Source of the DNA: an uncultured bacterium | GTDB lineage: Bacteria; Acidobacteriota; HRBIN11; JAKEFK01 | Assembly (NCBI GenBank): GCA_963777505.1 | Contig: CAVZQN010000004.1 | Location: 1,184,001-1,248,000, forward strand | Length of the DNA: 64,000 bases | Direction of reading: 5' to 3' | Part shown: piece after piece, positions 3,081 to 44,576 of the stretch | Numbering within the stretch: position 1 is the first letter of the stretch | Layout of the letters: each line of letters starts with the position of its first letter | The notes under the pieces: generated by a model | Database searches by the model: none | Told to the model about the DNA's origin: nothing | Seen by the model: only the letters and a program-made list of their open reading frames with translations | Translations under genes and position numbers: made by a program

Positions 3081-4464
3081 ATGTATCATATGTATATGAA
3101 TATTGCCCGGTTAATAACATGTTTATTAACCATCTTCATACTTGCGGCTGGGTGCGATACTTTTTCTAATGATGATGCAAAGTCGCAACCTAATATTTTG
3201 TTTCTCATAAGCGACGATCACAGCGGAGAGGATCTAGGCTCAACGGGTGAGAACAGACCTCGCACACCCGCGCTGGATGCCCTGGCTGCAGCGGGAGCGC
3301 GCTTCATGAATGCATATGCATTATCTCCGCAATGTAGCCCAAGCCGTTCTGCAATCATGACTGGACGTTCGCCGCATGCAACGGGAACCTCGCGGCTTCA
3401 CAGCGCTCTTACGGAAGAACACGATACAGTGATTGATGCGCTGAAGCGATCGGGTTATTACGTAGGTGCGTTTCACAAAGTCCATCTTGGAGAAAGTTTC
3501 CAGTCACGATGGCAATTTTATGGAGATAAGGATGCATCCTTTGAATTGTTTTTCCGCGATCGTCCGCGCGATCAACCGTTCTTTCTTTGGGTAGGGTTTG
3601 ACGATCCACATAGACCCTATCAATCAGGCGCAGTATCAAATCCGTTTGATCCTGAAAATGTGCGAGTTCCTGGATTTCTGCCGGATACAAATGCTGTTCG
3701 TACGCGATCTTGCAGATTATTACGATGAAATTGCGCGAATGGATTCAGATGTTGCCAGAATACTTTCACTGCTTGAAACGAATGGCCTGGCTAAGAATAC
3801 GCTTGTTGTTTTTGCCGGTGACAACGGGATGCCATTCCCGGGTGCGAAAGGTTCGCTCTATCATCAAGGTGTAAATGTACCGTTAATCGTCCGATGGCCG
3901 GGTTATATTAAAGCTGCACAAGTAAAAAATGAGGTCGTTTCGTTAGTTGATCTAGCGCCTACGTGGCTCGAAGCCGCAGGCATTAAACCACTCGCACAAA
4001 TGGAAGGGAAGAGTCTTCTTCCACTTTTGACCGGGCAATCGAGATCCCCAGATCGGCCGGCCTTTTTTGAACGGAACTGGCACGATAATCTTGATTTGAT
4101 ACGAGGCGTCCGCTCGGGTCGTTACCTGCTCATTCAAAATTACCGGACCGAATTGCCTTATCCACCAACTCTCGATCTCGTTCAGTCGCCAAGTTGGGTT
4201 GCAATTCGGGAACTTCATGGACAAAGCAAATTATCACAAGCGCTTGAGCAAAGATATTTTGCTGCTCCACGTCCGGAGGTTGAGTTGTTCAACCTCGATC
4301 TGGATCCTTTTCAACTTCAAAATCTTGCAGCCGATCCGGCTCACTCTGCCATTGTTGGAAATCTGCAAAAACTCCTTGGCGATTGGATGATTTCCACAAA
4401 CGATTTTCTTCAACCACCTATTCCTCCCAAGCGCAGCACTCACGGTGAATCCATACGTCAATAG
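3081..4464 (+). CDS. Cys-type sulfatase lipoprotein, sulfamidase-like (frameshift near 3702)
   Basis: Lipobox LAAGC, PNILFLISDD, CSPSR formylglycine motif, GDNG; two ORFs joined by removing one base. Confidence 0.85.
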
Positions 4465-6565: not shown

Positions 6566-6615
6566 TCGCCACGAATCATACCATGCAATTTGTAACGCCG
6601 GCATTTTCAGATTTC

Positions 6616-6694
6616 AACCACGAAGGCCACGAAGCATCACGAAGATTTTTCTTTAATTATTTGTATCTTCGTGCTTCTTCGTGAACTTCGTGGT
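6616..6694. repeat. Intergenic inverted repeat built of CACGAAG units
   Basis: AACCACGAAGGCCACGAAGCATCACGAAG...CTTCGTGCTTCTTCGTGAACTTCGTGGT. Confidence 0.75.
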
Positions 6695-6751
6695 AAAAAT
6701 CCTAAGAGCCGGCTGGGAGCCGACGTTACAAATTGCTATATAATCTGCCGC

Positions 6752-8170
6752 ATGATGATCCTTCTATTTCTCTTATTTTCGTTATCGATATTTCAAACTG
6801 CAGACGCTGAGTTGGATGTTGTGTTCGCGAATGCACACGTCATGGACCCCGAATCTGGCGTTGATGCCATTCAACACATAGGTGTTCGCGGCAATCGGAT
6901 CGTTGAACTTTCAACGAATCCGCTGAGCGGCAAAACGGTGATCGATGCAAAAGGGCTCGTATTAGCGCCTGGTTTTATTGATCTTCACTCGCATGGTCAG
7001 TCTGACGAAAATTATCGTTACAAAGCGATGGATGGTGTAACCACTGCGCTTGAGTTAGAAGTTGGCGTTTCGCCGGTTGCAAAATGGTACACAGAACGTG
7101 AAGGAAAGGCCCTCGTAAACTACGGCGCTACGTGCGGTCATATTCCAGTACGCATGGCAGTGATGCATGATTCCGGAACATTCTTGCCGCGTGATAAGGC
7201 GGCAAATGTTCGAGCCACATCCGACGAAGTTCGACAAATTACTGAATTAATAAAACGAGGTTTGGAAGAAGGTGCACTTGGCATTGGTTTCGGTATTAAT
7301 TACGTTCCCAAAACAACACGGAGTGAGATCTTCGATCTTTTCAGCATTGCAGCGGAACACAAAGTAGCCAATTTTGTTCATATGCGCTTTTCCGGATCCG
7401 GTGAAACGGATGGCGCTCTTGTTGCTTTGCAAGAAGTGCTTGCCGATACTGCGGCAACAGGCGCTTCACTGCATGTGGTTCACATTACAAGCACATGTTT
7501 ACGGGAGACATCTACTTGTTTAAAGATGCTTGAAGGCGCACAGAGAAGTGGACTCGATGTCACAACGGAATCCTATCCCTACACTGCGACTGCAACACAG
7601 ATTGATTCAGCAATCTATAATGAAGGCTGGCAAGAACGGCTCGGTATTACATACAAAGATTTGCAATGGGTCGCAACTGGTGAACGGCTTACGAAAGAGT
7701 CGTTCGATCGTTATCGAAAAACCGGTGGAGCTGTGATTGGTCATTCGATTCCTGAAGAAATTGCGCGTCTGGCTGTTGCGAATTCGAATGTAATCGTTGC
7801 AAGCGACGGTCGCTTCGTTGAAGGAAAAGGTCATCCACGCAGTGCTGGCACATTTGCGCGTGTGCTCGGATATTATGTGCGCGAACAGAAGGCACTTAGC
7901 TTAATGGATGCAATCCGTAAAATGACTTTATTGCCTGCACAACGATTAGAAAAATCAGTACCGCAAATGAAAACGAAAGGGCGGATCAAGGTTGGCATGG
8001 ATGCTGATCTCACACTCTTCGATCCGGCCCGCGTCATTGACCGTGCAACTTTTGAAAATCCGGCCCAATTTTCCGAAGGGATCCATCATGTGATGGTGAA
8101 CGGCGTATTCGTAGTACGAGATGGCAAAATCGTTGAAGGGGTAAAGCCGGGAATCGCAATTCGCCGATAA
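6752..8170 (+). CDS. Secreted amidohydrolase (D-aminoacylase/D-glutamate deacylase-like)
   Basis: Signal peptide; PGFIDLHSH, HPRSAGTFARVLG, GRIKVGMDADL. Confidence 0.85.
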   Translation: MMILLFLLFSLSIFQTADAELDVVFANAHVMDPESGVDAIQHIGVRGNRIVELSTNPLSGKTVIDAKGLVLAPGFIDLHSHGQSDENYRYKAMDGVTTALELEVGVSPVAKWYTEREGKALVNYGATCGHIPVRMAVMHDSGTFLPRDKAANVRATSDEVRQITELIKRGLEEGALGIGFGINYVPKTTRSEIFDLFSIAAEHKVANFVHMRFSGSGETDGALVALQEVLADTAATGASLHVVHITSTCLRETSTCLKMLEGAQRSGLDVTTESYPYTATATQIDSAIYNEGWQERLGITYKDLQWVATGERLTKESFDRYRKTGGAVIGHSIPEEIARLAVANSNVIVASDGRFVEGKGHPRSAGTFARVLGYYVREQKALSLMDAIRKMTLLPAQRLEKSVPQMKTKGRIKVGMDADLTLFDPARVIDRATFENPAQFSEGIHHVMVNGVFVVRDGKIVEGVKPGIAIRR

Positions 8171-8176
8171 GAACTC

Positions 8177-8194
8177 AACCGCAAAGACGCCAAG
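8177..8194 (+). repeat. AACCGC-type short dispersed repeat
   Basis: AACCGCAAAGACGCCAAG; related copies at 16948 (reverse), 26248, 55344 and 58099. Confidence 0.55.
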
Positions 8195-8197
8195 ATA

Positions 8198-9142
8198 TTA
8201 AGGTTTTCGTTTTCTGGGTTCCAGAGTTTTCATGTCGTAGTGAGTTTTGAAGAATTCATCACACCAGAGACAAATATTTTTCAGGTCTCGCGTTCTTTCT
8301 TTGGCGTATTCTTCCGTCACGCCAACTGATTCACCCATTTTCCATGGAGCACCTTCATTTAACTGTTTGAAAATTTCAGAACGCGATACCCGCATCAGTA
8401 CATCGGCAACTTTCTCTTTACGAGCATCACCCATCGGTTCGAGTGTTCCAGGACAACACGGATTGATTTTCCAAAGTTGAATTGAGACTTCTTGCGGAAT
8501 ATCTTCTGAGCCCCCAAGGAATCCGCGTGCACCGGAAAGGATTGCGCAAAAGTTGTGCATCGGATCCTTTTTCCAAATCCCTTTTTGAATTGCGCGGCCT
8601 CGTGCCCAATTTCCACCAAGCCACATTTCTTCCGTGGCACCCCAGAATCCATAACTGATCCGATCTTTCTTGAGGTATGTTTCTTTTTCAATCAATGGAT
8701 CAGTGTTTTCATCGCTCATCCCACGCGAACGAAATAGCTGCGTGAGTGCTTCTTTTCGTTCGCCTTTGTATTTATGGTAACTGTCGATTGAAGCAACATC
8801 GAAGCGAGTCACTCCTTTTTGAATTAAAGTATCCAGAATTTCTTCTGTCAGAAGATCGCCGTTAGTTTGAAGCATGATCTGAGTCGTGTTGGAATATTTT
8901 TTCTTTAAAGTGTCGAGTATCAAATAAAGTTGTTTCCGCTCCGCAAGCGGCTCACCGCCCGAAAGGATTAAACGATCGATTCGATCGGGCAGATGATCGA
9001 TGATTGCAAGGCATTCTTCATCGCTGATGCGTGAACCTTCAGGCCCGGAAAGGTTATAGCAATGATCACAAACGTCGTTGCATAGCTGAGTGAATACCCA
9101 GTACAAAGATTCGCAATGGTTAAAATCGTTTTTTATAAGCAT
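8198..9142 (-). CDS. Radical SAM protein with Cys-rich C-terminal extension
   Basis: CNDVCDHC (CxxxCxxC), SGGEP, QTNG; extra Cys in NFCA, PCCPG and CLWC. Confidence 0.9.
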   Translation of the reverse strand: MLIKNDFNHCESLYWVFTQLCNDVCDHCYNLSGPEGSRISDEECLAIIDHLPDRIDRLILSGGEPLAERKQLYLILDTLKKKYSNTTQIMLQTNGDLLTEEILDTLIQKGVTRFDVASIDSYHKYKGERKEALTQLFRSRGMSDENTDPLIEKETYLKKDRISYGFWGATEEMWLGGNWARGRAIQKGIWKKDPMHNFCAILSGARGFLGGSEDIPQEVSIQLWKINPCCPGTLEPMGDARKEKVADVLMRVSRSEIFKQLNEGAPWKMGESVGVTEEYAKERTRDLKNICLWCDEFFKTHYDMKTLEPRKRKP

Positions 9143-9148
9143 GTCTTC

Positions 9149-9194
9149 GTAGGGCCGGTCTTGTGCCGGCCCGGGCGGCCACAGCCGTCCCTAC
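9149..9194. repeat. GTAG-family REP doublet remnant
   Basis: GTAGGGCCGGTCTTGTGCCGGCCCGGGCGGCCACAGCCGTCCCTAC; related to copies at 30624 and 60018. Confidence 0.65.
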
Positions 9195-9923
9195 TGTCGT
9201 TTTTGTAACAAGCCTTCCCAAAACTCGATCTCACGCTGAACACCTGTTTTAGGATCGTGAATGAATTGCTGAACATCGTCAAAAACTTCCAGCGTACCTT
9301 TCTGCATTAGAGCAATTTGGTCACCCATCAGGATCGCTTCCTTCAAATCGTGTGTAACAAAAATCGATGTAATTTTGAACTGCTTTGCAACAGTTACGAA
9401 AAAATGTCTGCATCGAAGTGCGTGTCTCCGCGTCAAGATTGCCGAAAGGTTCGTCCAGAAGCAGCAACAAAGGATTCACAATGAATGCACGTCCAAAAGA
9501 AACTCTTTGCTTTTGGCCTCCGGAAAGTTGATGCGGCATCTTGCGCGCATGCTCATCAATCTGCAAACTCTGAATCATTTGAGCTGTTTTTTCTTGAATC
9601 TCTTTTTCCGGAAGTTTGCGCAACCTCAACCCAAAAGCAATATTTTCAAAAACATCCAGATGAGGAAACAAAAGCGTTTCCTGATAAAGATAAACAATAT
9701 TTCTCTTATGCGCTGGAACTTCATTTACGATTGTTTCTTGCAAAACTATTTGTCCGGAATCGCCCGCCAACAAGCCCGCGATAATCTTAAGGAGCGTAGT
9801 TTTGCCGCAACCAGAACGTCCCACAATGCTAAGGTTGTGATGCTCATTCAAGGAAAAGCTTAAATCCGAAAGAACTCTGTCTGATTGGAACGATTTATTC
9901 AAACTTTCAACTTTTAATAGCAT
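9191..9923 (-). CDS. ABC transporter ATP-binding protein, YnjD/PotA-like (frameshift near 9400)
   Basis: Walker A GRSGCGKT, LSGGQ, LLLDEPF; H-loop FVTHD lies in the next frame after an A6 run. Confidence 0.88.
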
Positions 9924-10667
9924 TTATGCAGGCTTTTTGAAAATGTAATTTTTATTAAACCAGAGCAAAATTGCAGGAGGCATGATCAGCAGACAGCTCG
10001 CCACCGCAGCATAGTACGGATTGGCTTCATTTATATATTGATAGACTTTAACAGTCAGCGTTTGAATCTTTCCAACCCCGATGATTGTAGTTAATCCGTA
10101 TTCGAACCACGAAATCAAAAATGTTTGGAAAAAGCAGACAAGCAGCATTGGCCGAGATATTGGGACAATTACTCGAAAGAAAGTTTGAAAGGTATCACTT
10201 CCGAGAGTTGCTGAAAGCTGTTCCAATGATTTCAGACGACTGCTCCAGTACCCGCTAAAAAAAATTACACTGAATGGATACGCAATGATGAATTGAGCCA
10301 GAACGACTCCGCTTGCTTTTCCTGCAAGTCCCAGTTTTACGAAAGAAAAGTAAATACATGCCGCATAAATAACAGGTGAAAGAATGTACGGCAAATACGC
10401 TGCAAAAAGTAGTTGATTATTTCTAGGATGATACGCCACGGCACGACTTGTCACAAATCCGAGTGCTGTTGCCGAAACCGAAACGGCAATCGAAATGCCT
10501 GCCGATATCGCCAGACCGGAAAGTAGACTGCTGTGCGCTGAGAAAAGCGTCAACCAATTGTTCATTGTTACTTGATCCGGAAGTACTTTCGGATATTGCC
10601 AGTTGTTTGTTAATGAAAGTAATGCCAGGAATGCAAAAGGAAAAGCAAATACGTATAACTGCGACAA
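9924..10667 (-). CDS. ABC transporter permease (YnjC C-half/PotC-like)
   Basis: Multi-TM; EAA-like motif LEQLSATLG; start uncertain. Confidence 0.85.
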   Translation of the reverse strand: MSQLYVFAFPFAFLALLSLTNNWQYPKVLPDQVTMNNWLTLFSAHSSLLSGLAISAGISIAVSVSATALGFVTSRAVAYHPRNNQLLFAAYLPYILSPVIYAACIYFSFVKLGLAGKASGVVLAQFIIAYPFSVIFFSGYWSSRLKSLEQLSATLGSDTFQTFFRVIVPISRPMLLVCFFQTFLISWFEYGLTTIIGVGKIQTLTVKVYQYINEANPYYAAVASCLLIMPPAILLWFNKNYIFKKPA

Positions 10668-10684
10668 TAGAAGTGGATTGTTGT

Positions 10685-11536
10685 TTAGAGGTCATAGGCC
10701 AGTTTCCGTTTTCTAAACAAGAGAACAATGAATATTCCAGTCAGGATCAAATACAGAACCGCCATCGTATACGCGGTTGGAATGTCCTGAAGATTGAATC
10801 GCTGCAACTTCCTGATTAACAAGACGGAGATCATTTGTGGATTTTGTCTGCCGAGGAGCAGCGGGATTTCGTATGATCCAAGCACGAAAATGAAATACAG
10901 CACAATCGTTGGAAATGATCTCTTCAGTAAAATTGGGATGGCAATTTTGAGTTCCGCTTGAACGAAGCTCGCGCCGAGAGTTCTTGCCAGCCTGTGCAGC
11001 TCTTCTAGATTTTCACTCTCATTCAAGTTCGCAAACAAGATTGCGAAAAAAGGAAGCCCCATCAAAACGTGAGTTGCGATGATGCCGATGCCAAACGCAT
11101 CCTGAATCAGGTCAGGAAATTCTTGAACTCGGGTGATCCAGCCGAATTGAAAGAAGACTCTGGAGAACAAACCTGCTCTGGCAAAAACTTGAAAAGCAAA
11201 AAATGCAGCAACGATTGCAGGGATTCCAAGCGGAAGATAAAAAAATGTCGAAATCCATCCATGCGATAGTTCTTTTTTTAAGATGGAAACGACAAGAAGT
11301 GCCAACGAAATCGTGATTGTCATTGAAACGATCGCGATATAAAGACTAAACAAAAAAGATGAGATAACTTCGTTGGAAGTGAGAGTTGTGATCCAGTAAG
11401 AAATCGTAAATCCAGGGCGTAAGATGCCGGCAAGGCCAACACTGTAAAGTGCTGCATATCCAAAGGACATGAATAATGGAACTATGGTGAATAACGCAAA
11501 AACAAAGAGAGCAGATGTGTTGAGCTTACTTTTCAA
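10685..11536 (-). CDS. ABC transporter permease (YnjC N-half/PotB-like)
   Basis: Multi-TM; LARTLGA motif; FVLGSYEIPLLLG. Confidence 0.85.
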   Translation of the reverse strand: MKSKLNTSALFVFALFTIVPLFMSFGYAALYSVGLAGILRPGFTISYWITTLTSNEVISSFLFSLYIAIVSMTITISLALLVVSILKKELSHGWISTFFYLPLGIPAIVAAFFAFQVFARAGLFSRVFFQFGWITRVQEFPDLIQDAFGIGIIATHVLMGLPFFAILFANLNESENLEELHRLARTLGASFVQAELKIAIPILLKRSFPTIVLYFIFVLGSYEIPLLLGRQNPQMISVLLIRKLQRFNLQDIPTAYTMAVLYLILTGIFIVLLFRKRKLAYDL

Positions 11537-12759
11537 TTACATGTTTCCTGAAATCATCATACAACCGGATCATGTATTCCGGGGCGAGTTCCGGCAGAGC
11601 TTTTGAATTAATTTCCTCACGTTTTGGCGCTAATTTCCTGCCAGGAACATTTTGAAATTTCTGCTGCCAATCCGCGGGTAACTGCTGGAGATTCAAAACC
11701 GTCCCATCTCCCCATACATTTGGTTTTGATTTTTCGAGTTGTGCTTCCGGTGAAATAAGGAAGTTGCAAACGACCATTCCGCCGGCTTTGTTACCGGAGC
11801 GATTTACAATTCCAATGTAATGTGAATTTTGAATTGTGCCGGAATCCAAAACATAGGCTTTTGAAGATGAAGGAAATAGGCCTTGCATTACTTTGTTGTC
11901 AACTTCACCATCATTATTGCTCATCGTAAAATCAAGTTCACTGCTTGCAAACATCTGATGCATCGGCGCGACGGCATCCGGAAATGTTTTGCCCTGTTTC
12001 CAGAAATATGGCTTGATGCGATTGATGTAGTTCCAAAGTTCGGCGGAATATTTTTCGTATTTCTCTTTGTTAAACGGTCCGGACAATTCCGCCTTACTTC
12101 CTGAAATCGCAATCAAAAAAGACTTCAGCAAGAGTCATTCCTGTAAAATCATTTCCGATCGTGAATTTCCCTGGATGCTTTTTTACATAAAGCTCCAATT
12201 CCTCCATATTCCGTGGAGGATCGTTCACCCGCCTGCTGTCATAAATGATGGCAAGCTGTACATTTCCCCACGGACATTCCATCCCATTTACTGGCTGCTG
12301 AAAGTCGGTGTTGATGAACGGGTTTTGCCAGTCGATATATTTTGAGTTTGGAAGACGCTCTGTAAAAGGTCCATATAAGCCCTGGATCTCGCGCAATTGA
12401 TAAAATGTTTCTCCATTGATCCAGCAAAGATCGATCTGGCTCGAAGTTTCCTTTGCTTCGATTTCAGTCATCAAGATTTGAACGATTTTGTTTCCTTGAC
12501 CTTCTGAAATATTGAGCGTGACTCCGAAGTCATTTTGTAGATGAGGTTTTACGTAGTTATTCATGTATGCATTGATATAAGGATCGCCACCCCACATCAT
12601 CAGTGTGACACTGGTGCCTTTCGCCGAGGCAAGAATCTGATCCCAATTCATTGCGGCAACATCTTGGGTCTGTTGCTGAGTTTTGCAGTGGCTTAAAAAC
12701 AAAGAAGCAAAAATCAAGATCGCGATCTTGCAACGAACGCTTTTATCCATTTGTTGCAC
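11526..12759 (-). CDS. ABC substrate-binding lipoprotein, YnjB-like (frameshift near 12132)
   Basis: Lipobox LSHC; MWGGD, IDLCWINGE, PWGNVQL, DFTGMT, NFLISPEAQ, WGDGTVL resemble the YnjB family. Confidence 0.82.
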
Positions 12760-12761
12760 GC

Positions 12762-15743
12762 TTAAAAGAGATAGCGCACTGTGAATTGGAATTGACGTGG
12801 TGGTGCAGCGTTCCGCTGAACAAAAATGCCCGAAGCTTTTGATCCAACTTGAATTTGATTGCTCTGCGTCGCGTTGTTGGAATAGCCGCTTAAATTGTTT
12901 TCGTTGAATACATTAAATATGTCTGCGCGTAAGATCAGATTCGACCAGTTGTACTGTGCCCCAACATCGAATGTATACGACCATGGCAGCCGATCGTTAT
13001 TCCTTGATTCACCAGGAAAGCGATCGCTGTTTCCGACATAGGCATCACCAAACGAACGGCCGTCCCCGTTTAGATCGGTCGTACCGAAAAGGATTGCATC
13101 CGGAATGCGATTGATAGGCTGTCCACTTTGCAACAAGGCCGCAACTGTAAATGAGAAATCATTGATCGGATAGTAATCGAAAACAGCACTGATTACATGG
13201 CGGCGATCGTTGATCGAAGCTCCCCATTCTTCTTCAAAATTGTTCGCATCTTCCGCGCGAAAATTAATGTCTTCAGTATTGTTTCGCAGCGAAGATAACG
13301 TATAAAACAATAAGTATGAATACTGATCATCCGCTCTCGTTTTTTGATACGTGAAGTTGGCTGCATAGTATTTTGATTCGCCTTCAGTTTCTGTAACCAC
13401 AATATTTCTTGCGATTCCCCGGACGATCTGTCCGTTGATAATCGCATACGGACCTTGTGCATCGACAAAAATAGGAATCGCACGTGTTGCATCTGCTTCG
13501 GCCTGTGTCCGAACCACGACATTGTTTGGATCATTTAATGGATAAGGCGATGGCGCATTCAAATCACGCAAACGAAAAAGATTGTAAGAACGTGTGTGCA
13601 TCACATCTACGTAAAAAAGTTGGTCTTCTTTCACTTGAAATTGATAACCGGCAGAGAAGTGATGTGTGCTGGGGTTTTGATAACCATCTGGATTCAGAAT
13701 ACGAAGTTCGTTGCTGAATGTGCTATCACGAAGTCCTTGAAGATCTTCCGGACCCGGCCCGTTGAGATACGTAACATTTGAAAAAGTGCCGCTCAAATTC
13801 CCGTCATTGGTGACTCGATTTACATCGGTATTTGAGGGCAGTATGCCGAGACGGATTAGCTCCTGGATCTGGCTCTGATAATCCGCAGAGGTAGTACTGA
13901 ATTGCAGAGCATCGCTAAAAATTGCATACAGGATTTTGTCATAATACAGTCCATATCCACCACGAAAACTGCTGCGATCATTTACTCTATAATTCAGGCT
14001 CACACGTGGCGCAAAATTATTTGCATCTCCATCCGTTGAGCCGCCTTTTGAAAGATTATCGTAATCGTAACGCAAGCCCAGCGTTAAATTGAGATTGCTG
14101 CTCAATGAAATTAAATCTTCCGCATAAAAACTGTAAACATTTTGCCGAGCGCCGAAAGAGTTCGTACGCAGCTCAACGTTGTAATTAAGAACTTCGGCGT
14201 CTGATGGAATATCGTTGATATCCAGAGCTGAACCTGGATTTTGTGTTCGGAGTTGATCGAGTTGATCCTGATTGAGCTTTACAAGGTAATTGCCGTTTAC
14301 ATTACCACCACCCAGCAAAGAATGATCGGATGTTTTCACGCCGGCACCAAATTTGAAGGAATGGTTTCCCGTGTAATAATCCAGCTTTTGGTCGAACTGC
14401 CACGTATTTTCAAGTTCATCAAACACGAAACCCGGATGTCCAAGAACTGCAATTGTTTGTTCGCTGGGATCCAGCACAGTCACTTGCGGGCTGTCCGGAT
14501 TTTCACCGCGCCCATAATTCCATCGAAAACGAGAGTAGAGAAGATTTGTTTCAGACATGAAGTTGCCGTGCAGATAAGTGTTTTTTGATGCAAGCAGAAG
14601 TGAATTTCTATCCTGACTGTTAGCAGCAGAAGGGAATTGAACACCGCCCTCTAATCCACCTCCTTGACGTTCTATATTGACCCATCCGGAATTCACGCGA
14701 AAAGATGATTTCAGTTCGTCATTCCAGAGGTGATCCACTTTTCCGGAAAGCAGAGTAAAACGATTTTCTCCGCCCACTGTTTCATTCACCCCCAGTGGCG
14801 GGCTGTTCAAGAGATTGTCTTTTAAATCGAAAGTTTGCTCCGCATCGATGAAGAAAAACGTCTGATCGCGAACGATAGGACCGCCGAGCGCAAAACCTGC
14901 CTGGTGCCGTTGGAATCCGTCCTTCACTTGATTTCCGGAAAGATCTCTTTGAGCAAATTCTGACTCACCATCGATTGCCGGCCCTGGACGAACAACGTAA
15001 AATGCTTCGCCGTTCAAATTGTTACTTCCGGATCGGGTTGTGATGTTTACGATTCCGTTTCCACTTTGTCCAAATTCGCTGGAATAGTTGCTCGTCAAAA
15101 CCGTAACATTTTGTGTGATGCCTATTGGCGCTGCAAATTTCTGCCCGCCCAGAAAATTTTCATTGTTGTCCAGTCCATCGATCAAATAACTTGTGTAAAG
15201 TGAATTAGCGCCATTGATACTTACGTTTGGAGCTTCCGGAAAAAAGCCGGTCGCCTGAGTTACGTTTGGAAGACGAAACAAAACGCGTGTAACATCGCGT
15301 CCTTCAACTGGAATTGCTTCAATTTCTTCTGCTTCCAGTTCGGAGGATACTTCGGCATCAATCGTGTTGAGTTGGGTTGTTGCTCTGCCTTCAACAGTGA
15401 CTTCTTCGGCTTTATTTTCTTTTCGCGGTAGGTACAAATTCACACTCGACTTCTTATTAGATCGAACAAGAATATTTTCGGCTCTCGCCTCAAAATACTG
15501 ATCGTTTTCACCAACAGATACCGTGTAAGATCCGGAAGTTGAAAGAGCTGTGAATTGCGCTTTCCCCTGAGTGTTCGTTGCCTTTTGTATCGAATATCCA
15601 ATAGAACTGTTTTCTAAGCGAACCATAATTCCGGAGATTGCTTGTTGATTCGATAAATCGGATACAGTTACTTCCAATTCTTCCTGGGCAAATGCAATTT
15701 GAGCAATCAAAAGAAACAAAACAGAAATGAATAGTTTCTTCAT
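12762..15743 (-). CDS. TonB-dependent receptor with N-terminal carboxypeptidase-regulatory-like domain (Oar-like)
   Basis: 993 aa, signal peptide, plug motifs YLIDGLDN and GIVNITTRSG, C-terminal PRQFQFTVRYLF. Confidence 0.9.
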   Translation of the reverse strand: MKKLFISVLFLLIAQIAFAQEELEVTVSDLSNQQAISGIMVRLENSSIGYSIQKATNTQGKAQFTALSTSGSYTVSVGENDQYFEARAENILVRSNKKSSVNLYLPRKENKAEEVTVEGRATTQLNTIDAEVSSELEAEEIEAIPVEGRDVTRVLFRLPNVTQATGFFPEAPNVSINGANSLYTSYLIDGLDNNENFLGGQKFAAPIGITQNVTVLTSNYSSEFGQSGNGIVNITTRSGSNNLNGEAFYVVRPGPAIDGESEFAQRDLSGNQVKDGFQRHQAGFALGGPIVRDQTFFFIDAEQTFDLKDNLLNSPPLGVNETVGGENRFTLLSGKVDHLWNDELKSSFRVNSGWVNIERQGGGLEGGVQFPSAANSQDRNSLLLASKNTYLHGNFMSETNLLYSRFRWNYGRGENPDSPQVTVLDPSEQTIAVLGHPGFVFDELENTWQFDQKLDYYTGNHSFKFGAGVKTSDHSLLGGGNVNGNYLVKLNQDQLDQLRTQNPGSALDINDIPSDAEVLNYNVELRTNSFGARQNVYSFYAEDLISLSSNLNLTLGLRYDYDNLSKGGSTDGDANNFAPRVSLNYRVNDRSSFRGGYGLYYDKILYAIFSDALQFSTTSADYQSQIQELIRLGILPSNTDVNRVTNDGNLSGTFSNVTYLNGPGPEDLQGLRDSTFSNELRILNPDGYQNPSTHHFSAGYQFQVKEDQLFYVDVMHTRSYNLFRLRDLNAPSPYPLNDPNNVVVRTQAEADATRAIPIFVDAQGPYAIINGQIVRGIARNIVVTETEGESKYYAANFTYQKTRADDQYSYLLFYTLSSLRNNTEDINFRAEDANNFEEEWGASINDRRHVISAVFDYYPINDFSFTVAALLQSGQPINRIPDAILFGTTDLNGDGRSFGDAYVGNSDRFPGESRNNDRLPWSYTFDVGAQYNWSNLILRADIFNVFNENNLSGYSNNATQSNQIQVGSKASGIFVQRNAAPPRQFQFTVRYLF

Positions 15744-15801
15744 TTCTTCTCTCCTTGTAGAGCTATCGGCAGAGGATCGGTATGGATGCCGGTGCGTGTT
15801 A

Positions 15802-16545
15802 TCAGTTTTCGGGAGAGGAAAATGGAAGTTCGGAAGGAGGTGGTAATTGCCAGCGCGATCGCTGGATGTCGGTAGGCAGGTGAATTAGTGAAAGGAAAGT
15901 ATCACTTTTATGATGCTGCTTCAGTTCTTTCAGCAATGATCGAGCCCTGGCTCCGATTTTGTTTTTGCAACTTGCCAGAAGCCGAAGATCTTCTATCGAA
16001 TCGATGTCATGCTTAACCGATAATAAGCACGTATTTTCTTCTCCGAAGACATGTTGAAGTTGGTCACGATCGGTGTTTTTTTGCCATTGAATTTCTGAAA
16101 GTTTATGGCTGTCTTGAATATGAAAGCCAATGAGGTAGCATCCTCCACGGTGATCCGGACCGATGACAAGTCGATGTTTTGAGAGTTGCGCAAGGGCTGT
16201 CTTGATATCCCTGGATTGAAGTTCCGGACAATCGGAACCGATAACAATGATTTGTTGATAACCAGTTTGAGCAAGTTTTGCGATTGCGTTTTGCAATCGC
16301 TCGCTGAAGGATGCACCGGTTTGAGCGTGTGTAAAGATTTTGATGCTTTCTGATCTTTTCGAATTCGAACGAAGATCTATGTCCGTACTGAAAAGATGTA
16401 CATCAGCGTCAGCGGTAACATCAGAAGTCAGGGACGGAATTTGTAGGAATTCCGAAAATCTTTTGGTGAATCCTCGAAGAGCGAGATCCGTTTGAATACC
16501 TGCAGCAAAAATGAGAACAGCTTTAGTGCATTTGGAATTTGCCAT
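15802..16545 (-). CDS. DUF2064 / TIGR04282-like glycosyltransferase-fold protein
   Basis: QTGASFSERL, IIVIGSDCPEL, VIGPDHRGGCYLIG, HDIDSIEDL. Confidence 0.82.
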   Translation of the reverse strand: MANSKCTKAVLIFAAGIQTDLALRGFTKRFSEFLQIPSLTSDVTADADVHLFSTDIDLRSNSKRSESIKIFTHAQTGASFSERLQNAIAKLAQTGYQQIIVIGSDCPELQSRDIKTALAQLSKHRLVIGPDHRGGCYLIGFHIQDSHKLSEIQWQKNTDRDQLQHVFGEENTCLLSVKHDIDSIEDLRLLASCKNKIGARARSLLKELKQHHKSDTFLSLIHLPTDIQRSRWQLPPPSELPFSSPEN

Positions 16546-16580
16546 GAAAAAATCCGGCTATCATCAACTCTATATTAGTT

Positions 16581-16817
16581 TCAATTGGGTTTTGGTTTAT
16601 TCTCCATTTGCTGCTTGGCTTTCTGTCGATCGGCTATTTCCTCCTGGACGAGTTTATAGGCAAGATAATATTTGAAGATATTGCTTACATATGTAACTGT
16701 TTCCTGTCCGATGCGCTCGGCAGCAACCCGTTCAACGTTATTGAACCAAAGGTTCGGATTCAAACCTTTTTGTGCGGCTTCTTTGCGCAAGTTCCGTATT
16801 CGATTCGGTCCTGCATA
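16581..16817 (-). pseudogene. 3' remnant of an MltF-like lytic transglycosylase
   Basis: AGPNRIRNLRKEAAQKGLNPNLWFNNVE...GQETVTYVSNIFKYY is an SLT-domain C-terminus; in-frame TAG immediately upstream and no N-terminal part. Confidence 0.75.
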
Positions 16818-16994
16818 CTAGATTGTTTTCTCACAGTCTTTAGCCTTCCCGGTCGTTGGCAGTAATGCTTGACGTACTATTTTTCACTAAAGTCTACATT
16901 TATACAACATTGGAAAGATTTAGTTTCCGGAGAATATTTGTCATACTCTTGGCGTCTTGGCGGTTGAGTTCTTTTAGAGCAGTTGTTGTCGTTT

Positions 16995-17552
16995 CTATCT
17001 CTGGCCGAGATTTTTTACCTTCAAGCTCAAAGCAATCAAAATCACACCATTGATAATAGCGAAAAGACCAATAATCCAAATGACTGCTAGCGCGCCGACT
17101 CCCGGGCGTAAAATCAAAATAAGCCCAAACAATAGTGACATCACGCCACTAAATCCTAGAAGCCATTCTGTTTCGATCACCTTCCGCAATCGAATGGCTG
17201 CGACGATATGAAAGATTCCGGTGATGATTGCCCAAAATGCAATAAACCAAAGCAATACTAACCCGGTAGTGCCAGGCCATAAGAATGTGAGAATGCCGAT
17301 TGCAATACTCAAAATGCCTGAAATCAAAGTTGCCCACCATCGTTCCTGTTCACCATATTGCTTGATTCCAAGCACGAGGGAAAAAATACCATCAATGAGG
17401 GCCCACGCACCAAAGAGGGTGATCAAGAACACAATTGTCATTCCTGGCCAAACAAAAGCAAGAATTCCAAACAGAATTGCTGCGACTCCACGAAGAAGCA
17501 AGAGCCACCAGTATTTAGAGATCATGTTCGTCAACGTACTCAGTGAATTCAT
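16995..17552 (-). CDS. HdeD/DUF308 family membrane protein
   Basis: WWLLLLRGVAAILFG, repeated WPG..L motifs, six TM helices. Confidence 0.9.
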   Translation of the reverse strand: MNSLSTLTNMISKYWWLLLLRGVAAILFGILAFVWPGMTIVFLITLFGAWALIDGIFSLVLGIKQYGEQERWWATLISGILSIAIGILTFLWPGTTGLVLLWFIAFWAIITGIFHIVAAIRLRKVIETEWLLGFSGVMSLLFGLILILRPGVGALAVIWIIGLFAIINGVILIALSLKVKNLGQR

Positions 17553-17610
17553 TCACGTCCTCCTTGAGCAATTAGAATTTGAATTGGTCATAGTGTCAGT
17601 CTGCAGAATT

Positions 17611-18369
17611 TCATAAACTGTGAGGCATTGGCACTCCGAGCAGACGGGCGGCCGCCATGATCATCTGAATGGCTAATGCGACCTGGAGTACTCCCAGCAC
17701 TGCGCCTAGTACCCCAAGTACGCCTGAGCCGTGCTTTAGAATCGGTCGCGCAAACCACATAGCAATCAGATTAAGAATCATTACCAATAGAAAAATTCCC
17801 AAAATGTTGAAATCTCGTGATTTGTCCGAAGCGCCAAGCATCAGAATCAGTGCGGCGGTTCCAAATGGTGTGATGATGCTAGGAAATGCCAAAGGTGAGA
17901 ATGCCAGACCTTTTCGAAGGGTAGTGACCTCGGCTTCTTCAGTTTCCGCGGAAGGAGCAGCATGGGGTTCATACTGCGACAACACAGTCTTCAATGCGAT
18001 GAGCAATAGAATCAAACCGCCTGCAAGTAGTAACGCTGGCAAAGAAACTCCCCATTTGAAAAGGAGATTTTGTCCCAAGAGTGCTGCGACCAAACCCGCC
18101 AGGCACGCAATGACAAAGCCTTTTAGTGCGAGGCGTCTCGATGTTGCATCGTCCATTCCCTTTGTAATCTTCACAAAGGGTCCCAATAATTTAATCGGGC
18201 CAAGCATCACTAGAAAGAAAGTGAAGATTTTGCTGTAAGGAATCGTCAGTTCCCTGGCGCCTTCCGCGGAGGAACTCGACTCGGCGCCAGGCGATGCCGT
18301 TTGTGCCACGGCAGTTGCGGTCAATCCCAGAAGCAGCAACATTGCGCCAATCTTCAGAAATTTCATCAT
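17611..18369 (-). CDS. MarC family membrane protein with N-terminal signal-like extension
   Basis: LGPIK, AGGLIL, LAFSPLAFPSIITP, QVALAIQMI. Confidence 0.85.
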   Translation of the reverse strand: MMKFLKIGAMLLLLGLTATAVAQTASPGAESSSSAEGARELTIPYSKIFTFFLVMLGPIKLLGPFVKITKGMDDATSRRLALKGFVIACLAGLVAALLGQNLLFKWGVSLPALLLAGGLILLLIALKTVLSQYEPHAAPSAETEEAEVTTLRKGLAFSPLAFPSIITPFGTAALILMLGASDKSRDFNILGIFLLVMILNLIAMWFARPILKHGSGVLGVLGAVLGVLQVALAIQMIMAAARLLGVPMPHSL

Positions 18370-18586: not shown

Positions 18587-19786
18587 TTACTTTGCGGTTT
18601 GCTCTTTAGTATTCGGGTCGCGCACAAATCTAACACCGAGGTGATCAGTACCTGTATTTAGTTCACCTTTTCCGCGGGTTCCAACCATGTAGCGCGTGCA
18701 GTATTGATCAGTGCACAAGAAGGAACCGCCGCGATGAACGCGCTTTTTTTCAGTGGGCTCGGATGGATCAAATGACGATTCGGGTCCGGCTGGATTTTTA
18801 GTTACACCACCAACTTTCGCTAACTCTGCATAATAATCAGGACGATACCAGTCGCTGACCCATTCCCAAACATTGCCTCCCACATCGTAAAGTCCATAAC
18901 CGTTCGGAGTAAAAGAAGCTACGGGAGCGATTCCTGCGAAGCCATCGCTGCCAGTGTCTGCTACTGGAAATTTCCCCTGATACGTATTTGCCATGGGTTT
19001 ATTCTGAGCATTCAAATCATCGCCCCATGCATAGAGTTTTCCAGTCAAACCGCCGCGTGCGGCAAACTCCCATTCGGCTTCAGTCGGGAGACGTTTGCCT
19101 GCCCACTTTGCATAAGCAAGAGCATCGTCATATGCAATATGAACGACTGGATATTTCTCCTTACCTTTGATATTGCTTTCGGGTCCTTGCGGATGGCGCC
19201 AGTTTGCGCCGGTCTGATAACGCCACCATTGATAATGATTATTCAATGGGACTGCTTCGATAGAGGCAGAGAACACAATTGAACCAGCTACAAGATTCTC
19301 CGGCGGAGCGTCAGGAAATTCTTCTTTAGTGGGTGTGCGTTCAGCGATGGTTACATAACCTGTCGCTTTGATGAACTTCACGAATTCTTCATTCGTCAAC
19401 TCAGTCGCATCCATCCAGAACCCATCAACATATACCCGATGAACTGGTAATGCATCGCGCGTCAGACCGGGCATATCACACATCGATTCGCTTTCGGCAG
19501 TACTGCCCATTGAAAATTCACCACCCGGTATCCATACCATTCCTTTCGGTGCAGGACCAGGTGCCGATGTTGAATTGCTCTTTGTCGATACGAAAGTAAC
19601 AGAAGGTGATGAAGATGGCTCTGACTTCACCGTAGAAACACGCGCTTGTTCGGGGATCGGAGGCGTCGATTTTCGTAAAACGAAATAGGCCAAAACAGCA
19701 GCCCCGATTAACGCCAACGGTAACCACCAAATTATGTAAGATCTGGTCTGTTGCTTTTCGCGCCTGGCGTGATTTCGTTGTGACAT
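18587..19786 (-). CDS. Formylglycine-generating enzyme family protein, N-terminally membrane-anchored
   Basis: RLPTEAEWE, NVWEW, RGGSFLCTDQYC; N-terminal TM helix and Ser/Pro linker. Confidence 0.9.
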   Translation of the reverse strand: MSQRNHARREKQQTRSYIIWWLPLALIGAAVLAYFVLRKSTPPIPEQARVSTVKSEPSSSPSVTFVSTKSNSTSAPGPAPKGMVWIPGGEFSMGSTAESESMCDMPGLTRDALPVHRVYVDGFWMDATELTNEEFVKFIKATGYVTIAERTPTKEEFPDAPPENLVAGSIVFSASIEAVPLNNHYQWWRYQTGANWRHPQGPESNIKGKEKYPVVHIAYDDALAYAKWAGKRLPTEAEWEFAARGGLTGKLYAWGDDLNAQNKPMANTYQGKFPVADTGSDGFAGIAPVASFTPNGYGLYDVGGNVWEWVSDWYRPDYYAELAKVGGVTKNPAGPESSFDPSEPTEKKRVHRGGSFLCTDQYCTRYMVGTRGKGELNTGTDHLGVRFVRDPNTKEQTAK

Positions 19787-24211: not shown

Positions 24212-26239
24212 TTGAAAGAACGTTCCCCTCTGACCGCATACCGCCCCCTGATTGAAAATATTCTGTGGTTCTGTTTATTCGAAACGGCATTCTATTTTGC
24301 TTATCGATATGGAATGTCGTTCAGCAATACTACCGCTTCTCCTTTCTGGTTCCCGGATGCGGTTCTGCTTTGTGCGCTCATGCGCAGTCATCCGCGAAGA
24401 TGGTGGATTTTTGTTTTCGCGCCACTTCCAATTCGAATCTTCGCAGAAGTCGCTCACAATATTCCTTTATGGTTTTTGCTCGCAACATTCGCGATTGATT
24501 CCGCAAAAGGGGTACTGACAGCTTTCGCTTTGCGCCACGTTAACAAGAATCCCATCCGTTTTGAAACGATACGAGAATATTTATTGTTCTTTTTCTTCGC
24601 AGTTTTAATGATTCCTGCAGCAGCTGCTTTTGGCAGGTGCTGCGAGCTCGACACATGCTTGGTGATGATTATTGGCAAGCATGGGGACGCTGGTTTCTTG
24701 GAAATGTGACGACACAATTGGTTTTGACACCAGCAGTTTTATATTGGGTATTTGGCCATCCTGGGAAGATTCAACTCCCGTCCACGAAGCGTGGTATTGA
24801 GGCCGGGTTATTGATCATCGGGCTTCTCGCGTCGGGCTATTTCGCCTTCCATTCGGAATCTCTTTCCAGCAGATTTTGCTGAGCCGTTATTCTTCGCACC
24901 TGTTCCATTTTTGTTTTGGGCAGCAATCCGGTTTGGAATGTTCGGCGCTTCTGCTGCAATCGTAGCGATCGCTGTTCTAGCCGTTCATGCAGCACTCAAT
25001 GCTCGTGGACCATTTTCGGGGCAGTCGCCGGCAGCAACGGCAGTCGCCTTGCAAAATTTTCTGATCATCAGAGCAGCGCCGCTTTATCTGGTGGCAATCT
25101 TGATAGGGCAAAGGAATGAAGTTGAGCAATCGCTAAGAGAAAGTGAAGGACGTTTTCGGAATGTGGCGAATTCTGCTCCGGTTGTGATTTGGATGACAGG
25201 ACCCGACACGCTTTGCACTTTCGTCAATCAAACTTATCTCAATTTCACCGGCCGTACAGTAGAACGGGAACTGGGAAATGGTTGGACAGAATGTATTCAC
25301 TCCGATGATTTAAAACATTGTCTAGATGTTTATCGCTCCGCCTTTGATTTGCATAACGAATTTGAAATGGAATACCGTGTGCGTCGGAACGATGGTGAGT
25401 ACCGGTGGTTGTTCGCCAAAGGAGTGCCTCGGCGGGCGCTGAATGGAGATTTCTTAGGTTATATCGGCACAGCCATCGATATTACAGATCGCAAGCGGGT
25501 AGAGGAGGCCAATCGTCATCTTGCTCATGCGCAACGTCTTACAATTTTGGGTGAATTTACCGCAATGATTGCTCATGAAGTAAATCAACCATTGGCTGCC
25601 ATCATGAGTAACACGGAAACCATCATGAATTTATTAGACTTTGAACAACCGCCGATGAAAGAAATTCGGGAAATACTTTCAGATATTCGCCAGGATGATC
25701 TTCGTGCAAACGAAACGATACGACGAGTTCGATCGCTGTTACAGAAACGCGAAATGCACATGGAACCATTTGATCTCAATCAAATTACTTCAGATGTGCT
25801 CAGGATCATAACCGCAGATGCAACGCGCAGGCACGTTCAAATTCGAAGAGACTTTGAACAAGGTCTTCCATTGGCTTTCGGGGACCCAGCCTATTTGCAA
25901 CAGGTATTGTTGAATTTGATTTCTAATGGAATCGATGCGATGAAGGATACTTCAGAATCTATCCGACAGCTTACCGTGCAAACGAAACATGATCACAACA
26001 ATACTATCGAAGTATCTGTCACAGATTGTGGGTGCGGTATCCCATCCGAAAAGCTGCCTCAAATTTTTGATTCATTTTTCACAACAAAAGAAGAAGGTAT
26101 GGGACTAGGCCTCTCCATCGCGCGTTCGATTATTGAAGCCCATCATGGACGTATCTGGGCTGAAAACAATTCCAATGGCGGTGCAACATTTCATTTTGCT
26201 GTGAGAATGCTTGATGATTCGAAGAATCTAAAACACTAA
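24212..26239 (+). CDS. MASE1-PAS sensor histidine kinase, FixL/NodV-like (frameshifts near 24635-24645 and 24870)
   Basis: MASE1 FWFPDAV and WAAIRFG; PAS; AHEVNQPL H-box; HATPase GMGLGL; split over three ORFs. Confidence 0.85.
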
Positions 26240-28421: not shown

Positions 28422-30612
28422 TTGGCAAATACCAGCTCTATTTTCCAAAGATTTGTTTCAATCAGCTTTTCCAAACAAATTATTCTTGGACTTTCTTTAG
28501 GCATCATTCTCGGGCTTTTTTTTGGAGAAATGATTGCACCCCTTCGTGTTGTTGCTGATGGATTTATTCGTCTACTTCAAATGACGGTTCTTCCATATGT
28601 CACTATCTCGCTGATCTCAGGGTTAGGTTCTCTTACAAAACAACAAGGCAAAATGATTTTCACGAAAGTAGGGGGTTTGCTCCTTCTTTTGTGGGGAATC
28701 ACCCTTCTATTTGTATTTCTCAGTACCTCTCGCTTTTCCAAGACAGGAATCAGCATCTTTTTTCAGCACATCATTGATAGAAGAGCCCAAATCTTTCGAT
28801 TTCTTGGATCTGTATATTCCAACGAATCCATTTTTCTCTCTTGCTAATAGCATAGTACCTGCAGTAGTTTTCTTCAGCATAGCTCTCGGAATCGCTTTAA
28901 TTGGAATCGAAAATAAGGAGCAGCTAATCGGATGGCTTGAAATCGCGCGAAAAACCCTCAGCCAAATAAGTCGCTTTGTTGTGAAGTTAACTCCAGTCGG
29001 ATTATTCGCGATTGGTGCCAATCTGGCAGGTACACTCAGGTTGGTGGATTTGGAGCGAGTCCAGGTGTTCTTGCTGATTTACGCCACAATTGCGGTTTTA
29101 ATGACGTTATGGGTTTTACCAGGGTTGGTCACTGCATTGACATCAATTCGGTATCAAGAGATTTTGAAGCGCACTTCGGATGCGTTGATTACAGCTTTTA
29201 TGACAGGAGATCTATTCGTCGTTCTACCTATTTTAGTTGATTCAAGCAAAGATCTGATTCAACGTCACTCAACAGAACGGAATGATGCCGCGAACCTGCC
29301 GGACGTTATCGTGCCTGCCTCGTTTAATTTCCCCCACTCTGGCAAAGTTCTTTCGTTAAGCTTCATCCTTTTTGCCGCATGGTTTAGTGATACCAGTTTT
29401 TCTTTGCTCGATAAATCAAAACTTGCGACCACCGGAGTACTTACATTTTTTGGAAACCTTAATGTCGCTGTGCCGTATCTATTAGACTTTTTCCATATTC
29501 CGATCGACACCTTTCAGTTATTCCTTGCGACAGGTGTCATCAACTCTCGTTTCGGAAGTGCAATTGCAGCAATGCATACATTCGTGTTGGCGGTCCTTGG
29601 CGCGTATGCAATGACCAACACTTTAACCATAAAACCAAAGAAATTGATTCGTTATGTTTTCATTACGCTGTTTTTTGCTTTCTTCAGTCTCATAGCTCTA
29701 CGATTCTTATTTGGTCTTGTCTTGGACAACAGTTATAGAAAAGGAGATGTTCTCCGTTCCATGCATCTCCTGAAGAGTAAAGATGCAGCAACGGTGTATC
29801 GTGACTTCCGCGCGGTTCCCCCATTACCAGAAACCAAAATGACATCTTTGCTGGCGCAAATTGATGAACGGAAGAAACTTCGGGTCGGCTACTTACCTAA
29901 TAGTCTCCCTTATGCTTTTTTTAACACAAAGAATGAACTTGTTGGTTTTGATGTCGATATGGCACACCAACTTGCAAAAGAAATGAATGTTTCTCTGGAA
30001 TTTGTTCAGATGGATCGGACCAAAGTCATTGATCAATTAAAAAGCGGGTATTGCGATATCTTGATGTCAGGCTTTGCGGTGAGTACCGGTCGAGCCAGAC
30101 AAATTATTTTGTCTTCACCTTATCTTTATGAAAATGCAGCCTTCATTGTTCCTGATTTCAGACGACATGAATTTGCAAATCGGGAGTCGATTCTAAGCAT
30201 TCAACATCTTCGAATCGGGATTCCGGACATTCCTTATTACAAGGATAAAATCCGCGAATACGCACCGAATGCCAAGGTAGTGACGATTGATTCACCGATG
30301 GATTTGTTTGAAGGAAAACGAAAGGATTGTGATGTTCTTCTTATTAGCGCTCAGCGCGGCTCTTCCTGGTGCTTGCTATATCCACAATTTACGGTCGTGG
30401 TACCGCAGCCAGGGATATTGACGGTTCCAATCGCCTATGCAGTTGCTCGGAATGATCAGAACTTTGCTGCCTTTGTGAATACCTGGATAGAGCTAAAAAA
30501 GAACGATCGAACGATTGATGATTTATACGATTACTGGATTCTTGGAAAGAATGCAGAACCGCAACAACCGCGATGGTCAATTCTTCGAAACATTCTCCAT
30601 TGGGTGAAATGA
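28422..30612 (+). CDS. Dicarboxylate/amino acid:cation symporter fused to a periplasmic binding domain (frameshift near 28720)
   Basis: N-terminal SDF-type TM domain (FIRLLQMTVLPY), C-terminal PBPb (LRVGY, LVGFDVDMA). Confidence 0.82.
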
Positions 30613-44089: not shown

Positions 44090-44101
44090 AAGATTTTCTC
44101 C

Positions 44102-44566: not shown

Positions 44567-44576
44567 CTCCTACTCA

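Follow-up and report, generated by a model that had tools for sequence, protein, structure and literature searches.

The window analysed here is a stretch of 64,000 nucleotides from the genome of an uncultured acidobacterium (contig CAVZQN010000004.1, positions 1,184,001 to 1,248,000), and our subject is an operon of seven tightly packed, co-oriented genes that occupies positions 8198-16545 on its minus strand. Window coordinates are used throughout, and families were assigned with Pfam and NCBIfam profiles. Distances between neighbouring genes of the operon run from an 11-bp overlap to a 58-bp spacer. A gap of 450 bp lies upstream of the first gene, which encodes a DUF2064 protein, and a convergent amidohydrolase gene ends 27 bp past the last, which encodes an enzyme of the radical S-adenosylmethionine (SAM) type. 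An original prediction, made from the letters of the window, had listed these seven genes and their limits, and both the open reading frames (ORFs) and the profiles show the list to be correct. Apart from two probable assembly errors, this copy of the operon is genuine and looks intact, and it constitutes a new variant built from parts of known kinds. From the first gene to the last, its features are as follows.

15802-16545, minus strand: first gene, DUF2064 / CofC-like transferase-fold protein, 247 amino acids (Pfam DUF2064, 80 bits)
12762-15743, minus strand: TonB-dependent outer-membrane receptor, 993 amino acids (Pfam barrel and Plug domains)
11526-12759, minus strand: YnjB-type periplasmic binding protein, split by a frameshift into ORFs 12094-12759 and 11526-12131 (NF008633)
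10685-11536, minus strand: ATP-binding cassette (ABC) permease 1, 283 amino acids (Pfam BPD_transp_1, 32.6 bits)
9924-10667, minus strand: ABC permease 2, 247 amino acids (Pfam BPD_transp_1, 31.1 bits)
9191-9923, minus strand: ABC ATPase, split by a frameshift into ORFs 9321-9923 and 9191-9436 (ABC_tran, 118 bits; PotA profile)
9149-9190, strand not assigned: REP-like, GC-rich hairpin repeat, within the 48 bp that separate the ATPase gene from the radical SAM gene
8198-9142, minus strand: radical SAM enzyme of an unnamed family, 314 amino acids (Pfam Radical_SAM, 52.5 bits; Fer4_12, 36.3 bits)

Combined in the operon are a complete uptake route across both membranes and an enzyme from a radical SAM family that is unnamed but very strongly conserved. 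The receptor consists of an N-terminal CarboxypepD_reg-like domain, then a plug, then a beta-barrel, and its Pfam scores place it among the TonB-dependent receptors (OMP_b-brl_4, 167 bits against a cut-off of 30; TonB_dep_Rec_b-barrel, 39 against 27; Plug, 33 against 23.9). The binding protein, the permeases and the ATPase have the domains of a type I ABC importer, with BPD_transp_1 at 31.1 and 32.6 bits (cut-off 26.4), ABC_tran at 118 bits and SBP_bac_8 at 33 bits. The permeases and the ATPase resemble the ModB, CysT, PotA and WtpC profiles, all below the family cut-offs. A search of positions 7500-18000 for riboswitches and other RNAs with Rfam, at a permissive threshold, returned a chance snoRNA match only (E 0.79), and a scan for promoters and terminators found sites no more numerous than in shuffled sequence. 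The REP-like hairpin at 9149-9190 is present in six genome copies at three mismatches or fewer, against none for the reversed control; one soil-metagenome contig matches nothing but this element, and the sequence to either side of it is unrelated.

A scan of one genome per species yielded 80 related loci, 58 of which extend 9.9 kb or more upstream of the radical SAM gene. Among these 58 full-flank loci, the ABC importer (binding protein, both permeases and ATPase) is encoded in 56; the receptor gene is present as well in 53, and in 48 there is a DUF2064-type gene in addition; gene order and strand are identical across the carriers in this set, which belong to several phyla. Since the same order recurs in 48 to 56 of the 58 loci, the arrangement is far beyond chance. 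The original prediction had staked its reading on the radical SAM and DUF2064 genes staying beside the transporter in other genomes, and they do. The exceptions are two loci without the importer (L031 and L087), three Verrucomicrobia-type loci without the receptor (L016, L021 and L079) and five without the DUF2064 gene. In L031, L075, L083 and L087 the enzyme stands alone, with uninformative housekeeping genes as its neighbours. Intact binding-protein orthologs of about 405 amino acids are found in 68 of the 80 loci, intact ATPase orthologs adjoin the radical SAM gene in 75, and both permease orthologs keep their operon position in the related loci. The carriers span Bacteroidota (Hymenobacter, Pontibacter, Saprospiraceae, Chitinophagales and Fulvivirga), Ignavibacteria, Kapaibacteria, Chthoniobacterales, Armatimonadota and Thermoanaerobaculia, and include named cultured strains of Hymenobacter, Pontibacter and Ferruginibacter yonginensis.

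Identity across phyla amounts to 63-78% for the radical SAM enzyme, 49-71% for the halves of the binding protein and 55-67% for the receptor, the last determined by tblastn, with one match of 77% that is a short fragment at a contig end. Such high conservation of receptor, binding protein and enzyme argues for one defined, invariant small molecule. The spread of the system is patchy: the enzyme was found in four of 401 genomes sampled from the window's own phylum (including the window genome and the unpublished genome G153) and in three of 301 sampled Bacteroidia, and searches of genomes from the same genus and the same family did not detect it. High identity across phyla, together with this patchy spread, indicates that the operon was probably acquired horizontally. 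The genes that flank the operon in the window are not kept beside it in any consistent way in the related loci, and the limits of an island are not definable, given that matches of the flanks to a same-genus genome are scattered over several contigs.

Two further proteins of about 215 amino acids each, which we call X1 and X2, are encoded after the enzyme or before the ATPase in 34 of the 80 loci. They have no Pfam or NCBIfam family, and in a language-model atlas X1 lies nearest to ThuA-like clusters, which is a lead from feature similarity only. Single-protein queries found neither X1 nor X2 in this genome, where the operon has its minimal seven-gene form.

The enzyme belongs to the radical SAM superfamily, with a score of 52.5 bits for PF04055 (cut-off 29.5) and a CX3CX2C motif at C21, C25 and C28 that is at least 90% conserved in 29 relatives. 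The extra C-terminal cysteines to which the original prediction had drawn attention are real and conserved in the alignment of these relatives, some of which are only 26% identical: C199 and C229 do not vary, conservation at C291 and C294 is at least 90%, and the spacing in the enzyme is C-x29-C-x61-C-x2-C. Pfam gave no SPASM match at E ≤ 0.01, and no NCBIfam model exceeded its cut-off, the best matches spanning only the first 120 residues. The AlphaFold2 model of the enzyme has a mean predicted local distance difference test score (pLDDT) of 90.5 and a predicted template modelling score of 0.90. In a fold search against representatives, EpeE came first (Z 18.6 over 259 residues, root-mean-square deviation 3.6), followed by BtrN and SkfB (15.2 each), ChlB and viperin (14.8 each), anSME (13.7), BlsE (12.9), SpeY (11.9) and DesII (11.7). 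SuiB, CteB, PqqE and MoaA are also among the matches, HemN (1olt) reaches a Z of only 9.3, and the results of Foldseek are consistent. Taken together, the conserved cysteines, the confident model and the top fold matches suggest that the enzyme probably represents an unnamed twitch-type radical SAM family, probably with one auxiliary cluster. Identity with ArsS (TIGR04167) was considered and rejected: the enzyme scores 21.1 bits against a cut-off of 300, over model positions 8-103, the shared SAM core, only. It had been described at the outset as not recognisably ArsS, which these figures bear out, and no ArsS was found anywhere in the genome.

Homologs of the enzyme number 1301 at E ≤ 0.001. 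The best 120 of these 1301 are 68-99% identical to it, and among the same best 120 the names are generic only ('radical SAM protein', 'organic radical activating enzyme'). A deeper branch of the family (P0150, P0154, P0163, P0165 and L002, the last at G027:C14:88069-88851) comprises proteins of 350-367 amino acids that are 29-37% identical; they carry some 30 extra residues inserted behind the SAM motif, keep the C-terminal cysteines and show almost no NCBIfam match. Three orthologs of the enzyme contain one in-frame stop each: G745:C391:5339-6253 (TGA), G511:C51:81489-82397 (TGA) and G153:C88:9994-10911 (TAG).

The DUF2064 protein falls within the Pfam family of that name (80 bits against a cut-off of 25.8). 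Of the 'DUF2064/TIGR04282' grouping to which the original prediction referred, it fits the first name and not the second, as the score for TIGR04282 is 92.5 bits (model positions 45-189), under the cut-off of 134. The nearest solved chain is 3cgx, a putative nucleotide-diphospho-sugar transferase (E 6e-11). When compared by BLAST with three references, the operon's DUF2064 copy in 49 of the 80 loci formed its own paralog group, located upstream of the receptor. Judged from its sequence, the protein is a cluster-specific paralog of TIGR04282 and not a member of that family.

The two halves of the binding protein score 192.5 and 182.6 bits with NF008633 (PRK11622, which we take to be YnjB), each under the cut-off of 203, and tile positions 8-394 of the 397-position model. 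Among 14 control genomes, this profile has matches in Escherichia coli, Caulobacter vibrioides and Thermotoga maritima, over the cut-off in one. We know of no established substrate for YnjBCD, and among the literature matches listed for ynjB, ynjC and ynjD, the titles and abstract openings stated no function. The model of the binding protein (pLDDT 93) is matched by Foldseek to PhnS, PotD, FbpA/FutA, ThiB, and gamma-aminobutyrate (GABA) and sugar binders alike, at 12-16% identity; with similar scores across all of these, the fold points to no particular ligand. An intact ortholog of the binding protein had no sequence match in the Protein Data Bank.

Two of the seven genes are split. The original prediction had taken only the binding protein to be broken and missed the split in the ATPase; it also did not recognise how frequent split genes are in this assembly. 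Each of the two genes has a single break near an A6/T6 run, at 12115-12120 in the binding protein and at 9399-9404 in the ATPase. The pieces of the binding protein tile NF008633 without loss (positions 8-200 and 201-394), and those of the ATPase tile the PotA profile (17-193 and 193-240). A Pfam scan of 64 further ORFs of the window for split genes revealed at least four other genes likewise cut into overlapping ORFs, several of them near homopolymers of 5-6 bases.

3081-3728 and 3598-4464: sulfatase, split
24212-26239: MASE1 histidine kinase, in three pieces
28422-28847 and 28711-30612: SDF transporter fused to SBP_bac_3, split
51184-52770 and 52646-53170: second MASE1 histidine kinase, split

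The region examined on contig 1 also holds several split genes, including unrelated kinases and a true TIGR04282 gene in two pieces. Given that the breaks are single and lie at homopolymers, that the profiles are tiled and that split genes are common in the assembly, the frameshifts in the binding protein and the ATPase are probably assembly errors. The alternative, that the operon is a decaying remnant here, with both frameshifts real, the importer dead and only the flanking enzymes perhaps working, appears unlikely. Two genes out of the seven are broken, searches of genomes from the same genus and family did not find the operon, and the partners TIGR04283, X1 and X2 were not found in this genome either, a pattern that fits a recently acquired and poorly integrated island. 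However, there is one break per gene, each at a 6-base homopolymer, with no further lesion and with the profile tiled, and the frequency of split genes elsewhere, in the window and on another contig, points to the assembly rather than to the operon.

A possible clue to the function of the system comes from the company it keeps. The comparison covers 55 operon-bearing genomes and a background sample of 301 Bacteroidia, 298 of which are without the enzyme (the background counts include the unpublished genome G585). TIGR04283 exceeds its cut-off in 38 of the 55 operon genomes, against 29 of the 301 in the background, or 27 of the 298 without the enzyme. For ArsS the corresponding figures are 19 of 55 and 49 of 301. 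When only the TIGR04283-positive genomes are compared, 24 of the 38 with the operon lack ArsS, but just 2 of the 27 from the background, where TIGR04283 is nearly always accompanied by ArsS (25 of the 27 genomes lacking the enzyme). Enrichment of TIGR04283 with frequent absence of ArsS is what would be expected of a module, made up of importer and enzyme, that runs parallel to ArsS and supplies the same downstream enzymes; the pattern suggests such a parallel route, fed by import.

Physical linkage in other genomes is consistent with this. In 11 of the 55 genomes the distance between TIGR04283 and the radical SAM gene is no more than about 20 kb, and in three ArsS is found within 6 kb of that gene. 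Several genomes have two TIGR04283 copies; in G402, one of them adjoins ArsS and the other is on the operon's contig. True TIGR04282 (eight loci) and TIGR04283 (five loci) occur as extra neighbours within 10 kb and flank the operon in, for example, L013, L079 and L088. The first of these, from an Ignavibacterium metagenome-assembled genome (MAG), is the closest named relative of the window's operon and has a fused TIGR04283-TIGR04282 gene just upstream. The tie to the ArsS/TIGR04282/TIGR04283 set, proposed originally from known associations of these families, is thus supported by genome co-occurrence and by linkage elsewhere. In two Chthoniobacterales loci, TIGR04283 is located after the operon, fused or adjacent to a second radical SAM domain (L016:12229-14445 and L021:12728-14878); this domain, of about 480 amino acids, has no NCBIfam family.

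In a preprint, ArsS is described as performing radical cleavage of the adenosyl C-S bond of SAM in arsenosugar biosynthesis (bioRxiv 10.1101/2024.02.01.577332). Our preferred reading, offered tentatively, is that the operon is one copy of a widely conserved and undescribed import-and-modify system, import-fed and parallel to ArsS, whose frameshifts are artefactual. On the basis of family assignment and synteny, the TonB-dependent receptor would carry a defined small molecule over the outer membrane, and the YnjB-type binding protein, the two permeases and the ATPase would take it into the cytoplasm. There, the twitch-type radical SAM enzyme, with one SAM cluster and probably one auxiliary [4Fe-4S] cluster on C199, C229, C291 and C294, may act on the imported compound. 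By analogy with BtrN, SpeY and EpeE, hydrogen abstraction would lead to dehydrogenation (oxidation), epimerisation or bond cleavage. The DUF2064 transferase-fold paralog would then add or exchange a nucleotide or sugar group, and the compound would feed the same downstream chemistry as the ArsS/TIGR04282/TIGR04283 set. It is possible, if somewhat doubtful, that the substrate is an exogenous compound of the ArsS product line, either an organoarsenical or another compound of 5'-deoxyribosyl type. More doubtful, and bordering on unlikely, is the broader proposal that the operon provides, in several phyla, a second, import-fed entry to the TIGR04282/TIGR04283 pathway: in place of synthesis of the radical SAM product by ArsS (and ArsM), an exogenous organoarsenical or similar 5'-deoxyribosyl compound would be scavenged by way of the dedicated TonB receptor and YnjB-type importer and then processed by a new twitch-type enzyme.

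Several observations weigh against this import-fed route. The original prediction saw no TIGR04283 partner here, and this holds for the whole genome, where the best score is 117 bits against a cut-off of 182. The genome is also without ArsS (best 37 bits, cut-off 300) and without an arsenosugar-type ArsM (NF038099, 95 bits against 400), so that the complete arsenosugar set of ArsS, arsenosugar-type ArsM and TIGR04283 is not present, and no feature of this genome ties the operon to arsenic. Lacking those partners, the operon must act here without them, which weakens a strict pathway model. Elsewhere, 17 of the 55 operon genomes are without TIGR04283 and 19 also have ArsS. As a third of the carriers have both, the operon does not strictly replace ArsS; the relation between the two is neither obligatory nor a simple replacement. 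The co-occurrence counts set operon genomes of several phyla against a background of one class, Bacteroidia, and the operon genomes are not independent, many being Hymenobacter or Pontibacter and many being incomplete MAGs. To our knowledge, TIGR04282 and TIGR04283 owe their 'arsenosugar' names to gene neighbourhood rather than to assays. The model of the binding protein matches PhnS, PotD, FbpA/FutA and ThiB about equally. With respect to the frameshifts, the public runs found are four soil metagenomes (5-7% of sampled words), and their contigs cover neither site.

This genome has one further TIGR04282, which stands alone on contig 1, frameshift-split and among unrelated neighbours. Its only ArsM is of the general NF008823 type (307 bits) and is encoded beside ArsN2 (160 bits) at L111:3853-5118, on contig 3 of this genome (G000), far from the operon.

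A different substrate would give the same genes another meaning. It has to be considered whether the operon serves the uptake and breakdown of a sugar-, cyclitol- or aminosugar-like nutrient, with no link to arsenic. The enzyme would then be an oxygen-independent alcohol dehydrogenase or dehydratase like BtrN, SpeY and DesII, and the ThuA-like pair found elsewhere would handle a keto-sugar intermediate. BtrN (Z 15.2), BlsE (12.9), SpeY (11.9) and DesII (11.7) are indeed among the fold matches of the enzyme, X1 and X2 accompany the operon in 34 of the 80 loci, with X1 nearest to ThuA-like clusters in the atlas, and sugar-binding proteins are among the fold matches of the binding protein. However, the sevenfold enrichment of TIGR04283 and the absence of ArsS in carriers would be left unexplained, and the 80 loci have no glycoside hydrolase, kinase or isomerase in common. 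Moreover, the ThuA label is a matter of feature similarity, without a Pfam match, and the single-protein queries for X1 and X2 in this genome were negative. A nutrient of this kind thus seems improbable, to much the same degree as decay of the operon.

The import of a metal ion, a metal chelate or a vitamin-type cofactor (ferric ion, or a thiamine- or polyamine-like compound), which the enzyme would mature or remodel, is less likely still. The pairing of a TonB receptor and an ABC importer is typical of uptake systems for scarce metals and vitamins. In agreement with this, the best fold matches of the binding protein include the ferric-binding FbpA/FutA, the thiamine-binding 2qry and PotD, and the permeases and ATPase resemble the ModB, CysT, PotA and WtpC profiles. 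These similarities are generic, though, at 12-16% identity and under every family cut-off; the Rfam search found no riboswitch in or before the operon (7500-18000), and, with 4 carriers among 401 genomes and 3 among 301, the system is too rare to be a general vitamin or metal route. The DUF2064 paralog and the linkage to TIGR04283 would also remain unexplained. An imported peptide, with the enzyme as a peptide epimerase or cross-linker like EpeE/YydG or the sactisynthases, is very improbable: EpeE is the top fold match (Z 18.6 over 259 residues), followed by SkfB, CteB, SuiB and PqqE, but no conserved short ORF or precursor gene is among the families common to the 80 loci, the enzyme starts 20 residues before the SAM motif, without an N-terminal domain for recognition of ribosomally synthesised and post-translationally modified peptides, and the binding protein belongs with the PotD/FbpA class, which takes small molecules, rather than with the Opp/Dpp class for peptides.

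We found no published description of the operon, in a search that left subscription journals largely outside. The literature searched contains no mention of 'DUF2064', and the TIGR accession numbers had passing mentions only among the matches listed; no publication combining a TonB receptor, a radical SAM enzyme, an ABC transporter and arsenosugar was found. If the link of the import-and-modify system to ArsS and TIGR04283 is true, the operon would point to heterotrophs of soil and fresh water that take up and reuse organoarsenic or related compounds, and thereby to an unstudied step of arsenic cycling. The binding proteins of the YnjB family would gain their first ligand class, and there would be testable ligands for YnjB-type transporters and DUF2064 proteins. 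Since cultured carriers exist (Hymenobacter, Pontibacter, Ferruginibacter yonginensis), the question is directly testable.

The wider window, at 42503-47688 and 18587-19786, is sulfatase-rich and contains two FGE-sulfatase (formylglycine-generating enzyme-like) genes; in other genomes, none of these sulfatase and FGE-sulfatase genes is kept beside the operon. An element roughly 85 bp long at 6613-6700, between the CPBP protease and amidohydrolase genes, is a dispersed repeat, with more than 25 matches on both strands of the same-genus genome G001, at 74-94% identity.

Among known systems, the enzyme itself is closest in structure to EpeE (8ai1), BtrN (4m7t/4m7s), SpeY (7wzv) and anSME (4k36), with which it shares the fold over nearly its whole length. 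EpeE and BtrN also have, as this enzyme does, a CX3CX2C motif together with C-terminal cysteines whose spacing would suit an auxiliary cluster. Sequence identity to these four proteins is just 13-20%, however, and the enzyme sits in an uptake operon and not in a biosynthetic cluster. The importer recalls E. coli YnjBCD, given that the binding protein tiles the NF008633/PRK11622 profile, but the operon described here has two separate permease genes, a TonB receptor, a radical SAM enzyme and a DUF2064 protein.

In the ChuW/HutW loci for anaerobic heme uptake, a TonB receptor and an ABC importer occur together with an enzyme of the radical SAM type by which the imported molecule is processed. The present operon is alike in bringing these three functions together in one locus. 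It differs in that its importer is of type I (BPD_transp_1, with a binding protein of the PotD/FbpA class) and not of the heme/siderophore type, and in that its enzyme is twitch-like and not HemN-like, as the low Z score for HemN (1olt, 9.3) illustrates. With the arsenosugar-type gene set, the operon shares the pairing of a radical SAM enzyme with a cysteine-rich C-terminus and a DUF2064/TIGR04282-type protein, and TIGR04283 is enriched in operon carriers, often on the same contig. The enzyme is nevertheless not ArsS, the DUF2064 protein scores under the TIGR04282 cut-off, and in the operon an outer-membrane receptor and an ABC importer replace ArsM.

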